A DNA stretch of 64,000 nucleotides from positions 264,058,001 to 264,122,000 of the forward strand of contig OZ024743.1 of assembly GCA_964016885.1 (NCBI GenBank), given 5' to 3'. This document shows positions 30,598-42,215 of the stretch, in pieces; position 1 is the first letter of the stretch; each line of letters opens with the position of its first letter. Position numbers and translations under genes: made by a program. Below the pieces are notes generated by a model. That model was not told where the DNA came from and did not search any database. It was given only the letters and a program-made list of their open reading frames with translations. Source of the stretch: Eledone cirrhosa (lineage: Eukaryota).

Positions 30598-30663
30598 GAA
30601 ATTTAATTTCGTTTCGTTATTTGTTTTTATCGTCTCCGTTGAACCGGTACTTACTCACACTCT

Positions 30664-30671
30664 ATGCAAAT
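30664..30671 (+). promoter_or_regulatory. Octamer ATGCAAAT, present once per unit in both arrays (e.g. also 39874-39881)
   Basis: Exact octamer in shared context TATGCAAATTAGkCTGC, ~110-125 nt upstream of the HHR cleavage site. Function is inferred only. Confidence 0.5.
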
Positions 30672-30756
30672 TAGTCTGCCCACTACTAATTTTCATAGAA
30701 AAAGCATATAACGATATGTGCTTTTACGATTCTCTAGAGAGGCCGGAAGATAGGTA

Positions 30757-30801
30757 AATATTGCTGATGAGTTGTAACAACAACGAAACTAGTTCAATAT
30801 T
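30757..30801 (+). ncRNA. Type I hammerhead ribozyme, representative of the 467-bp unit
   Basis: AATATTG-CTGATGA-GTTGT(aaca)ACAAC-GAAA-CTAG-TT^CAATATT. Canonical core, palindromic stem III ACTAGT, GUU triplet. Confidence 0.9.
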
Positions 30802-37469: not shown

Positions 37470-39220
37470 AAATCGTTTAGTCTAATCTCTTACATTTTAC
37501 TGCTGTCAGGTCATCATTCACGTGTGTATGTATGGATGGATGTATGTATATGTATGTATGTAAGTATGTATGCATGCATGTATGTATGTATATGTATGTA
37601 CGTATAAATATATGTATATATCAGATTGCTTTCAGTAATATGGCTGCTTGAGATAAAACGAATTTCAAACACCCCTCCCAGCTAATATTAGGTAATTATC
37701 ACAAGATATTAGAACGCCTGATATTGTAAAGTACATTGTCTTAAACAAAAATTGCGAAACTAAAAGAGAAAAGTAAAATGTAAATGAAGACATGAAACAC
37801 TAAAAAATACTCTTTTATCTTTTGCTCTTACGTAAATAAAAGTAATTTTAAAATTCTTTTATTAGGTGGCGCATTTCAATAACTGAATGCGTCACTTTTA
37901 GGTTACAGCTTTCCTTGTTTTAAATGTTTTTTTTAAACTTTATATTTTGTTTTTAGCTGGCGAATTGGCAGAGTTGATAAACGATCGGATAGAAACTTTG
38001 GTTTGTGTTCCATTTATCTGGCCTATGAGTTGAAACGACTTTAAAGTCAAATTCTTCGAGGTCGATAAATAAAGTAGTATTCACGTACTGATGTTGATTT
38101 TCTTTTCACCTTCCTTCCTCTGACTCTCTCTCTCTCTCTCTCTTCTTATCCTCTCTCCTATTTTCCTATCCCATCTTTCCTTTCTCCCTATCTGATCTCT
38201 CCCTCTCTTCATCTCCCCACCCTCCTCACCTCTCCATGTCCCATCACCCACTCTCATCTCCTTCCCCATCTCTCCTTCTCGCCTCTCCCTCTACCTTACC
38301 CCATTCTTCTCTCCCTCTCCCATCTCTCTCTTTCTCTCTCTCATTTGGATACGCTGCGATGAGATAATTACTTCGACCATTACTCCAAAAATGTAAACAA
38401 AATTGTGCAATGCCCTAACAAATTCTTCTCAACTTGAATCTGATATAGTTTTGGCACCATCCAAAGACGAACCTATCTGGAGTGAAGAACTGCTTTGCCG
38501 GAAATTTATTTCGTCAATATCGCAGTAAATATACATATATGGAATTTCATTTATAATAGTTTGTTTTTATTTTGATGAGAGAGGATTTTTACTGTTTAGA
38601 CATAAAAACAACACACGTTATTTCACCTGAACTTTATTGTAAAGCGATAAGGTATGTTTACGTCGTCTTAATATATGAATTAATTATCTTAAATTTGTTT
38701 GCCGGAACGAAACCTCGGTATGAGTACGAATTTGTAGGTAAAATTATGTTATATTTTAAAATGTTTTTTTTTACTTGCAATGCTTTCTTTTATTATACTG
38801 TAAAGTTTTGCACCAAAATATCATTTTTGAAGAAATGAAAGTCAGTGATAAGAAAGTCTGGAGAGCTGGACAGCAGAAACGAAACTCCCCACAAGCGAGT
38901 GTGTCTACCCTTAGAAGTTAAGTGTTTAGTCTATATATATAGTATTGGAGCTATTTACGGTCTAAAATGACTGAAATAATTTTATTCTGGTCTATTATTC
39001 TCTCTCTCTATATATATATAATATATATAATATAATATATATAATATAATATATATAATATATACCTATATGAACCTACAGTAACTCCGCGTTATATATA
39101 TATATATATATATACACATATATATATACATATAAACACACACACATACACACACACACACACACACACACACACACACACACACACACACACACATATA
39201 TATATATATATATATATATA

Positions 39221-39589
39221 ATAAAGAAGAAAAATAAAAGATGGTTAAAAGAGTTACATATATTTTATTATGATCATTTCCAATACAAAATCATCCTGGG
39301 ACAAAAATTGTGATCTCATCAGATTAAATAAGGTAACATGATATGAGGCATAATAGCACTTGTTTACAGGAAAGTGCTAAGTCTACATATGCACTTTCCT
39401 GTAAACAAGTGCTATTATGCCTCATATCATGTTACCTTATTTTATCTGATGAGAACACAATTTTTGTCCCAGGATGATTTTGTATTGGAAATGAGCATAA
39501 AATATATGGAACTCTTTTAACCATCTTTTAATTTCTTCTTTATCGTATATAATCCAGTTCTACCAACTGTTGAGTGCTACTTATCTGAT
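39221..39589. mobile_element. Palindromic PLE-type mini-insertion with an HHR in both arms
   Basis: 39221-39377 is inverted to 39391-39543. Minus-strand HHR at 39261-39330 reads TATTTAAT-CTGATGA..GAAA-TGATCA-TA^ATAAAATA. A plus copy at 39438-39504 is damaged. Confidence 0.8.
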
Positions 39590-39598
39590 AAATGCATA

Positions 39599-42215
39599 GT
39601 TTACAAACGAACAAAGCGACGTTAGCGCCGCTAAACTGATACGTGCATATATGTATGTGTACCTGTATGCATATGTATATATATGTGTATATATATATAT
39701 ATATATATATATATGTGCATGCTACTGTACGTCTGTATACATATATGTATGTACGTATACATGCATACTTACATTTAAGTAAGTGCCATACTAAGAGTGA
39801 GAAATGAAATTTCGTTTTCATTTTGTTTCAATTTATCGTTTTCGGTATGCCTAACCGATTTAACTCACTCAATATGCAAATTAGGCTGCTCAGCCGTTAA
39901 TTTTCATAAGGAAAGTATATACTTTCGAACGTTCAACTATCTGGCAGATGGGTAAACGGTGCTGATGATAGCTAACAAGCTTGAAACTAGTACATCGTTC
40001 CTGTGTCAGTGTTGAGCAAAAAGGTGACGTGGTTGCCTTAACACCGTATGGCATAAATTCAGGCTGTTCAGTTTGTTTACAAACGAACAAAGCGACGTTA
40101 GCGCCGCTAAACTGATACGTGCATATATGTATGTGTACCTGTATGCATATGTATATATATGTGTATATATATATATATATATATATATGTGCATGCTACT
40201 GTACGTCTGTATACATATATGTATGTACGTATACATGCATACTTACATTTAAGTAAGTGCCATACTAAGAGTGAGAAATGAAATTTCGTTTTCATTTTGT
40301 TTCAATTTATCGTTTTCGGTATGCCTAACCGATTTAACTCACTCAATATGCAAATTAGGCTGCTCAGCCGTTAATTTTCATAAGGAAAGTATATACTTTC
40401 GAACGTTCAACTATCTGGCAGATGGGTAAACGGTGCTGATGATAGCTAACAAGCTTGAAACTAGTACATCGTTCCTGTGTCAGTGTTGAGCAAAAAGGTG
40501 ACGTGGTTGCCTTAACACCGTATGGCATAAATTCAGGCTGTTCAGTTTGTTTACAAACGAACAAAGCGACGTTAGCGCCGCTAAACTGATACGTGCATAT
40601 ATGTATGTGTACCTGTATCCATATGTATATATATGTGTATATATATATATATATATATATATATATATATGTGCATGCTACTGTACGTCTGTATACATAT
40701 ATGTATGTACGTATACATGCATACTTACATTTAAGTAAGTGCCATACTAAGAGTGAGAAATGAAATTTCGTTTTCATTTTGTTTCAATTTATCGTTTTCG
40801 GTATGCCTAACCGATTTAACTCACTCAATATGCAAATTAGGCTGCTCAGCCGTTAATTTTCATAAGGAAAGTATATACTTTCGAACGTTCAACTATCTGG
40901 CAGATGGGTAAACGGTGCTGATGATAGCTAACAAGCTTGAAACTAGTACATCGTTCCTGTGTCAGTGTTGAGCAAAAAGGTGACGTGGTTGCCTTAACAC
41001 CGTATGGCATAAATTCAGGCTGTTCAGTTTGTTTACAAACGAACAAAGCGACGTTAGCGCCGCTAAACTGATACGTGCATATATGTATGTGTACCTGTAT
41101 GCATATGTATATATATGTGTATATATATATATATATATATATATGTGCATGCTACTGTACGTCTGTATACATATATGTATGTACGTATACATGCATACTT
41201 ACATTTAAGTAAGTGCCATACTAAGAGTGAGAAATGAAATTTCGTTTTCATTTTGTTTCAATTTATCGTTTTCGGTATGCCTAACCGATTTAACTCACTC
41301 AATATGCAAATTAGGCTGCTCAGCCGTTAATTTTCATAAGGAAAGTATATACTTTCGAACGTTCAACTATCTGGCAGATGGGTAAACGGTGCTGATGATA
41401 GCTAACAAGCTTGAAACTAGTACATCGTTCCTGTGTCAGTGTTGAGCAAAAAGGTGACGTGGTTGCCTTAACACCGTATGGCATAAATTCAGGCTGTTCA
41501 GTTTGTTTACAAACGAACAAAGCGACGTTAGCGCCGCTAAACTGATACGTGCATATATGTATGTGTACCTGTATGCATATGTATATATATGTGTATATAT
41601 ATATATATATATATATATGTGCATGCTACTGTACGTCTGTATACATATATGTATGTACGTATACATGCATACTTACATTTAAGTAAGTGCCATACTAAGA
41701 GTGAGAAATGAAATTTCGTTTTCATTTTGTTTCAATTTATCGTTTTCGGTATGCCTAACCGATTTAACTCACTCAATATGCAAATTAGGCTGCTCAGCCG
41801 TTAATTTTCATAAGGAAAGTATATACTTTCGAACGTTCAACTATCTGGCAGATGGGTAAACGGTGCTGATGATAGCTAACAAGCTTGAAACTAGTACATC
41901 GTTCCTGTGTCAGTGTTGAGCAAAAAGGTGACGTGGTTGCCTTAACACCGTATGGCATAAATTCAGGCTGTTCAGTTTGTTTACAAACGAACAAAGCGAC
42001 GTTAGCGCCGCTAAACTGATACGTGCATATATGTATGTGTACCTGTATGCATATGTATATATATGTGTATATATATATATATATATATATATATGTGCAT
42101 GCTACTGTACGTCTGTATACATATATGTATGTACGTATACATGCATACTTACATTTAAGTAAGTGCCATACTAAGAGTGAGAAATGAAATTTCGTTTTCA
42201 TTTTGTTTCAATTTA
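39599..42215 (+). mobile_element. ~474-bp HHR-containing tandem repeat (retrozyme-like), ~5.5 units
   Basis: HHRs start at 39955, 40429, 40911, 41385 and 41859 (spacing 474/482/474/474). Units differ mainly in internal (TA)n length. Confidence 0.9.
39955..39999 (+). ncRNA. Type I hammerhead ribozyme, representative of the 474-bp unit
   Basis: AACGGTG-CTGATGA-T-AGCT(aaca)AGCT-T-GAAA-CTAG-TA^CATCGTT, GUA triplet. Confidence 0.87.

Follow-up and report, generated by a model that had tools for sequence, protein, structure and literature searches.

Hammerhead-bearing tandem repeats in Eledone cirrhosa with a likely host U6-type promoter element and Penelope-type insertion marks

We analysed a stretch of 64,000 nucleotides (nt) from Eledone cirrhosa (assembly GCA_964016885.1, contig OZ024743.1, positions 264,058,001 to 264,122,000; hereafter the window), which carries two kinds of tandem unit, family A (467 bp) and family B (474 bp). 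Judged from their sequences, these are sister families of one non-coding tandem repeat with a type I hammerhead ribozyme motif. Their assignment to a known class, the retrozymes without long terminal repeats (non-LTR retrozymes), is nearly certain. We give a probability of about 0.7 to the reading as a whole, in which such a retrozyme, with a likely borrowed U6-type promoter element, would cleave itself as a dimer into unit-length circles and would be copied into (TA)n by a Penelope-like element. The reading starts from direct observations: homology of the units, covariation of ribozyme stems, a palindrome rule, a match to host promoters and recurrent insertion marks. Besides A and B, the comparison includes family C (310-312 bp) and older lineages named D, F and G. 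The host genome is 3.0 Gb in size and AT microsatellites are abundant in it.

Two sister families and their hammerhead motif

In the window, family A is represented by a head-to-head array (29623-32424) and a solo copy, and family B by one array (Table 1). Copies within an array are 98-100% identical to each other. A preliminary description of this DNA had regarded the two units as diverged relatives with a common order of motifs, and this is borne out. They are colinear, every motif named there is present in both in the order given, and global alignment of the monomers yields 307 identical positions in 437 aligned columns (70%), with a score of 325 versus 123 +/- 12 in 300 shuffles (z 16.6). 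When the ribozyme and the AT-rich hairpin are left out, the score is 187.5 versus 68 +/- 10 after shuffling. The pairwise alignment A2 is unreliable past column 340, where four of its rows enter flanking DNA. GC content of the two units is 34.9% and 35.7%. In circular folding of the monomers, about two-thirds of the bases are paired in either family (z about -10, 30 shuffles), and the same set of hairpins results, including one long-range stem with two-sided change, far from the ribozyme. No LTR structure is present in the units. The A array is devoid of any frame of at least 100 amino acids (aa), and the B array contains only short, repeat-derived antisense frames.

The type I hammerhead core, open at stem I, is found in all 12 window copies, with C3-A9, G12-A14, A15.1-U16.1 and H17 in place. 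The Rfam scan of the window gave no match at gathering score, so the hammerhead copies escaped detection by this route. At least 22,473 matches to the exact core pattern occur in the genome (control 0). Stem I reads AATATTG/CAATATT in A and AACGGTG/CATCGTT in B, letter for letter as first described. Seven pairs differ between the two families: five changed on both sides and are Watson-Crick in each, one went from U-A to G-U, and pair 10.1:11.1 went from G-C to U.U. Stem II carries a U-A to A-U swap that marks a large subfamily of A, and position 1.7 is mostly U.U. The solo copy of family A had been credited with converting G-U to Watson-Crick pairs. Two such differences exist (array 30735 T/C and 30739 G/A), both unpolarised, but a third (30741 G/C) breaks a pair of the outer stem.

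Selection on RNA structure had been proposed with a larger alignment named as its test, and this alignment gave strong covariation. It comprises 27 distinct variants without gaps, drawn from families A, B and C and chosen from 48 distinct ones fetched (alignment A1); the 21 left out are insertion or deletion variants, decayed or unrelated solo copies and a few near-duplicates. In A1, 91.3% of 459 cells are paired, versus 71.3 +/- 1.4 in shuffled alignments, none of 500 reaching this value, and 34-49% in slid controls. Two-sided change is seen in 11 of 17 pairs. To allow for kinship within families, each of four lineages was also represented by a single copy; pairing then held in 55 of 56 cells (exact permutation P 2e-8). 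Covariation maintains both stem I, about 6 bp long, and stem II, about 4 bp. The comparison thus supports selection acting on the RNA structure. Since the ribozyme class is known, covariation by itself is expected. Not every shared motif is explained by RNA structure, because the 5' arm of one hairpin matches a host promoter element (see below).

The letters AACA of loop II and the TA bulge of stem I had both been called invariant. This is true of the bulge, identical in the 12 window copies and with T8 and A9 unchanged in 27 of 27 variants. AACA is likewise identical in the 12 window copies but varies genome-wide. Among 68 distinct cores, the six bases of the loop are TAACAA in 21, TAATAA in 18, TAATGA in 15, TAACGA in 3 and TAAGAA in 2, with nine singletons, and UAAYRA is kept in 57. 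The U and A flanking AACA never covary, though their neighbours do, and one D copy has C..A at this place; a six-base UAAYRA loop is therefore the better reading of loop II. The conserved letters of loop and bulge are consistent with the suggested tertiary contact between them. Canonical metazoan type I hammerheads are known to make a contact between stems I and II, as described in the relevant part of PMC4209133.

Stem III consists of a single pair and a palindromic loop, an organization of the dimer type. The hexamer ACTAGT, too, had been considered invariant. It is identical in the 12 window copies, but ACGCGT, ACATGT and ACCGGT also occur in the genome. Cores in which both central letters of loop III differ from TA number 15,300 (control 50), and among the 100 of these that were listed all are palindromic: 93 have ACGCGT and belong to one family, C, four have ACATGT and three ACCGGT. 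ACATGT cores in total number 688 (control 16). As changes of both letters stay palindromic, selection is indicated on the self-complementarity of the stem III loop. In modelled dimer transcripts of families A, B and C, the double hammerhead lies 13-19 kcal/mol below two single folds in all three cases, and in two of the three it appears in the free fold. Given the conserved palindrome and these models, the retrozyme RNA would very probably cleave as a dimer. Palindromic loops and dimer cleavage are already known from metazoan hammerheads, and the four natural palindromes make a ready test set for dimeric hammerhead cleavage.

In one B-family array (G000:C1:319892500-319898500) units alternate between ACATGT and ACTAGT, so that neighbours could not fully pair. 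This array, a single locus, may have spread as a two-unit repeat.

Upstream elements and host small-RNA promoters

We compared sequences upstream of the ribozyme with host promoters of small-RNA genes. The host set comprised three independent U6 genes (from 13 loci), one U6atac gene (from six) and the single MRP gene; the other U6 loci are duplicates within clusters, copies with interruptions or copies whose flanks are not promoter-like. In all five genes TATGSWAATKAG is present at -77 to -79, and each has a TATA box at -30. Within the U6/MRP/RNase P group the element is found in 5 of 6 host genes, and in none of eight U1/U2 upstream regions. The five-gene profile gives 14.5-22 bits in leave-one-out scoring. 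It scores 20.1 bits in family A (reached in none of 2000 shuffles), 15.2 in B (2 of 2000) and 5.8 in C (373 of 2000). Window matches above 11 bits are confined to the 11 array units, where the TATGSWAATKAG proximal element stands in sense orientation upstream of the predicted RNA.

The match extends to older lineages. TATGCAAAT recurs in every one of the 10 pairwise comparisons of lineages A, B, D, F and G, and outside the ribozyme no other block of at least 9 nt does so; in the predicted fold, TATGCAAAT is unpaired in 2 of 8 copies. At 86-105 nt ahead of the core, the element is kept by 11 of the 19 F loci, by both G loci and by one of the two D loci. Of 65 distinct cores that have the A/B pattern and 135 nt of upstream sequence, 51 carry the element in place. 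The remaining 14 include 11 cut at truncation or inversion junctions, one shifted by a deletion, one unreadable and one unrelated. Retrozyme lineages switch between TTAG and TGAG, the two forms seen in host genes. In A and B, a single hairpin is formed by TATGCAAATTAG as 5' arm and TAATTTTCATA as 3' arm; the former is constant and the latter varies or is lost. From this pattern of matches we consider it likely, by a fair margin, that the upstream element acts as a promoter. Transcription by RNA polymerase III (Pol III) is a tentative proposal, a little short of even odds.

Family C has no U6-type element. It carries the host distal element instead, scoring 15.7-19.1 bits with a profile built from 13 host matches (0, 0 and 1 of 2000 shuffles), and this element overlaps the 3' strand of ribozyme stem I. 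The distal element, AATT, CCAGT and TATA stand at -257, -90, -57 and -30, which is the spacing of U1/U2 genes. The trio AATT/CCAGT/TATA turns up anywhere in 5-10 of 5000 shuffles, and at the host distance in none of 5000. It is an even bet that promoters of host small nuclear RNA (snRNA) genes were taken twice, the U6/MRP element by A, B, D, F and G and the U1/U2 layout by C, with self-cleavage and circularisation making an external promoter heritable and two-site initiation of Penelope type building the arrays.

TAATTTTCATA was considered as a host proximal snRNA element and rejected: it is not present in U1, U2 or U6 upstream regions and represents the 3' hairpin arm.

As to the host genes themselves, most of those for U1, U2, U6 and RNase P have a distal element TTACYTCCCTT at about -260. 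U1 and U2 have TCAGT at -57 and AATTA at -90, the layout of RNase P being U1/U2-like, and U6, U6atac and MRP have an octamer-like element at -78. This layout may serve the design of guide-RNA promoters in this animal.

Insertion marks and Penelope-like elements

Junctions of the units with (TA)n are not scattered. In family A, 19 of 20 fall into two clusters, at offsets 229-234 (5 junctions) and 299-304 (14). In family C all 20 do so, at offsets 127-140 (12) and 166 (8). Contigs of run X1 have loose ends running into (TA)n at both A sites, and in the A array of the window one arm ends at each of the two sites. Inverted junctions are head-to-head in 24 of 25 cases. An inverted 5'-truncated arm, a one-ended tail and a microsatellite target are all present. 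In the passages of PMC11167929 that deal with it, the Penelope signature is a tail between two start sites of reverse transcription at a stem-loop.

Intact Penelope-like frames of 784 aa exist in the genome. They are arranged in tandem, end in (TA)n and contain RWR, DKTG and CxCx5C motifs, which the corresponding section of PMC8557442 describes for the (TA)n-targeting Hydra clade. Pfam and PDB searches returned no match to these frames, and their Hydra assignment is based on the motifs of that paper. No canonical hammerhead was found on the sense strand of intact 784-aa copies. Taken together, the insertion marks make it highly probable that a Penelope-like element mobilises the units.

The window itself contains a broken Hydra-type Penelope-like element. 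Intact relatives lie at G000:C1:91474983-91486398, and many 784-aa copies occur genome-wide, some of them repeated in tandem every 3.5 kb or so. Many pairs of short repeat ends in the window fold back on each other, often around (TA)n; these are probably products of the same inverted insertion mechanism. On either side of the A array lie, inverted relative to each other, end pieces of an older B-like copy, which looks like a duplication of the target flank made during insertion.

Table 1. Retrozyme features and neighbouring repeats in the window (positions of the 64,000-nt stretch)
Feature	Position	Strand	Remarks
Family A array, inverted arm	29623..30597	-	2.1 units of 467 bp; 3' end is the distal site and abuts (TA)n
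Family A array, forward arm	30598..32424	+	3.9 units; 3' end is the proximal site without tail and abuts (TA)n
Family A upstream element TATGCAAATTAG	30663..30674	+	Matches host U6/U6atac/MRP element at -78; 5' arm of predicted hairpin; in each unit
Family A TAATTTTCATA	30687..30697	+	3' arm of the same hairpin; varies among lineages
Family A TATA-like word	30707..30711	+	Within AT palindrome, 44 nt after start of upstream element; putative start near 30737-30741
Family A type I hammerhead	30753..30803	+	UA bulge 30755-56, stem I, core 30764-70, stem II, six-base loop 30775-80; palindrome 30788-93; predicted cleavage after 30794
Family A tail	31029..31097	+	About 69 nt between two recurrent 3' ends; contains 3' hairpin (~31057-31085)
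Other family A cores	31231, 31698, 32165	+	
Other family A cores	30423, 29956	-	
Family A solo copy	34339..34748	+	5'-truncated, preceded by 14-bp inverted piece; without upstream element; core 34415; (TA)n flanks
Family B array	39599..42216	+	5.5 units of 474 bp; 3' end abuts (TA)n
Family B upstream element TATGCAAATTAG	39873..39884	+	3' hairpin arm 39898-39908; TATATA 39916-39921 (offset 43); predicted start near 39946
Family B type I hammerhead	39951..40001	+	Core 39962; U.U at 10.1:11.1; predicted cleavage after 39992
Other family B cores	40436, 40918, 41392, 41866		
Older B-like copy, 42-bp 3'-end fragment	29524..29565	+	Read by eye against B-like loci
Inverted, longer counterpart of B-like fragment	~32440-32550	-	
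Broken Hydra-type Penelope-like element	2181-4230	+	
Other Penelope-like frames, 3' fragments	23841-24993, 5695-6126	+	Thumb, zinc-finger linker and GIY-YIG-like motifs by eye
Small hammerhead-like cores of other repeat families	21831 (-), 21886 (+), 32816 (-), ~35850 (+)		One with AGTACT; resemble minimal Penelope ribozymes
Fold-back pairs of short repeat ends	32670-32960, 33990-34060, 35310-35850, 36040-37190, 39220-39550		
LINE-type (long interspersed element) frame fragments	43520-50720	-	At least two copies; reverse transcriptase and endonuclease motifs by eye

Proposed mechanism, alternatives and known systems

From these observations we infer cleavage, circles, promoter activity and a helper element, in the following order. 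TATGCAAATKAG together with the TATA-like box would start transcription 15-27 nt ahead of the ribozyme core, and the transcript would run through the next units, the polymerase being more likely Pol III than RNA polymerase II (Pol II). Because stem III has one pair and a self-complementary loop, two neighbouring ribozymes would pair via the hexamer and cleave as a double hammerhead, with the UA bulge and the UAAYRA loop supplying the usual contact of stems I and II. The unit-length RNA would then be ligated to a circle. This circle would hold the promoter sequence of the next unit, so that the upstream promoter would survive copying. A Penelope-like reverse transcriptase/endonuclease would have two fixed start sites, one on each side of the 3' hairpin, and from either would run round the circle, which would result in head-to-head arrays in which only one arm has a tail. 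Stems would covary because only RNA able to fold and cleave gets copied, and benefit to the host is not necessary.

Several observations weigh against this reading. Two of the five covariation measures, those counting pairs or pair types, fail against shuffling (154 of 500 and 487 of 500), the covariation data hold only about four deep lineages, and pair 10.1:11.1 is mismatched in B, C and F. In the vertebrate test, as given in the part of bioRxiv 10.64898/2026.07.22.740005 concerned, only 1 of 9 predicted retrozyme dimers was cleaved. Junctions of family B lie at two sites in just 10 of 30 cases (244-260, 6 junctions; 314-318, 4), the rest falling in an internal AT tract or being false matches to simple sequence. 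The units share only AT-rich simple-sequence similarity with the one Penelope-like family examined, which makes the helper a candidate only. The words of family C were defined after its sequence had been seen and the ribozyme itself supplies part of the distal element; an ungapped profile of the full U1/U2 proximal region fails to score in A, B or C. The U6-type profile derives from five genes only, partly chosen because they show the element, and the RNase P gene is without the -78 element. Among old ACATGT cores, a score of at least 7.8 bits for the element is reached in one of the two D loci, in 11 of 19 F loci and in both G loci, and in none of 17 other solo loci.

Further points of this kind concern the promoter and at the same time favour an alternative for it. 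The retrozyme could be the same and its upstream element could be an octamer-type Pol II site, as in newt satellite 2, or the arm of an RNA hairpin only, and not a Pol III promoter; we regard this as unlikely, though it deserves consideration. The element is an octamer-type word, which other factors could bind. It doubles as a hairpin arm, pairing with TAATTTTCATA in A and B and via G-U in D. The TATA-like box follows it by 43-45 nt in A, B and F, 3-5 nt closer than in the host genes, where it is 47-49 nt in all five; the distal element of the host, near -265 in 4 of these 5, was not found in A (2.7 bits) or B (1.7 bits). A T5 run in the A unit and three T4 runs in B could stop Pol III, and multimers would require read-through of them. 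Newt satellite 2 is reported in the passage covered of PMC2220036 with an snRNA promoter and Pol II. However, this host has the element at the proximal position only in U6, U6atac and MRP genes and not in U1/U2. Lineages also switch between TTAG and TGAG as host genes do, while the partner arm varies freely or is lost, and the T4-T5 runs may be leaky, given that host U6 genes end in 7-10 T's.

Two other explanations concern the unit as such. If the units were pseudo-LTRs or fragments of a longer autonomous Penelope-like element, selection on the ribozyme would have acted there and not in the short unit. The insertion marks are indeed of Penelope type, and according to the literature consulted hammerheads occur in Penelope pseudo-LTRs, to which vertebrate retrozymes are related. 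Yet arrays are composed purely of short head-to-tail units, dozens of them in the largest, the entire unit folds into a closed circle that has compensatory changes at a distance from the ribozyme as well, and a piece of the one Penelope family tested lies near 9 of 128 ribozyme loci (some overlapping) in no fixed place or orientation. We think this explanation very improbable. Even less credit is due to an ordinary satellite that spread at the DNA level and kept its ribozyme for a host function. DNA-level expansion could also give 98-100% identity within arrays, but there are thousands of dispersed short arrays whose 3' ends are fixed and lie in (TA)n, and these, like the head-to-head inversions, speak for reverse transcription; old families decay after insertion. 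The retrozyme with a likely U6-type promoter, copied by a Penelope-like element, thus remains the preferred reading.

As to the transcription of animal retrozymes, candidate promoters with predicted start sites can here be read off by comparison with the U6, MRP, U1 and U2 genes of the same genome. The two fixed 3' ends and the tail on one arm represent a mechanistic footprint for the proposed dependence of retrozymes on Penelope-like elements. Among the matches listed in our literature search, titles and abstract openings mentioned neither these families nor a U6-type element in a retrozyme; repeat databases and supplements may hold annotation.

Non-LTR retrozymes and their likely Penelope origin have been published before. 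According to the passages covered of two studies of animal non-LTR retrozymes (Cervera and de la Pena 2020, PMC7229834; Li et al. 2026, bioRxiv 10.64898/2026.07.22.740005), these are likewise non-coding tandem units of low GC content with one type I hammerhead each. They likewise occur as several families per genome, have a highly paired predicted circle and coexist with Penelope-like elements. The unit size of 467-474 bp exceeds the 150-450 bp given in the former and is within the 51-972 bp of the latter. Those passages contain no promoter elements and treat Penelope mobilisation as a hypothesis, whereas the two-site tail signature is direct here.

Satellite 2 of newt and axolotl has a single-pair stem III and a palindromic loop, as is the case here, and a need for dimers, as is predicted here, and axolotl HHR_Amex2 shows U.U at the base of stem II, as does family B. 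In the relevant passage of PMC2220036, newt satellite 2 has an snRNA-type promoter inside the unit, reported to be of Pol II type. Unlike it, families A and B match the host U6/MRP element; family C resembles the newt case. The promoter of the Schistosoma repeat is tRNA-like and internal, whereas the match in our units is an upstream, U6-type element. In this repeat, similar to short interspersed elements, a type I hammerhead follows the promoter, Pol III transcribes the unit and a tandem arrangement is required (PMC6765202, in the part covered); the unit is tandem here as well.

Penelope-like elements of the Hydra clade and PAc, in the sections of PMC8557442 and PMC11167929 devoted to them, also show head-to-head inverted insertions, a one-end tail from two start sites at a stem-loop and (TA)n targets. 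Their tails measure 30-40 nt, versus about 69 nt in A and 35 in C, and our units are protein-free. The units have no sequence match to the one Hydra-type Penelope family examined. What these repeats add to the known class is the palindrome rule, the Penelope footprint and the matches to two host promoter types.

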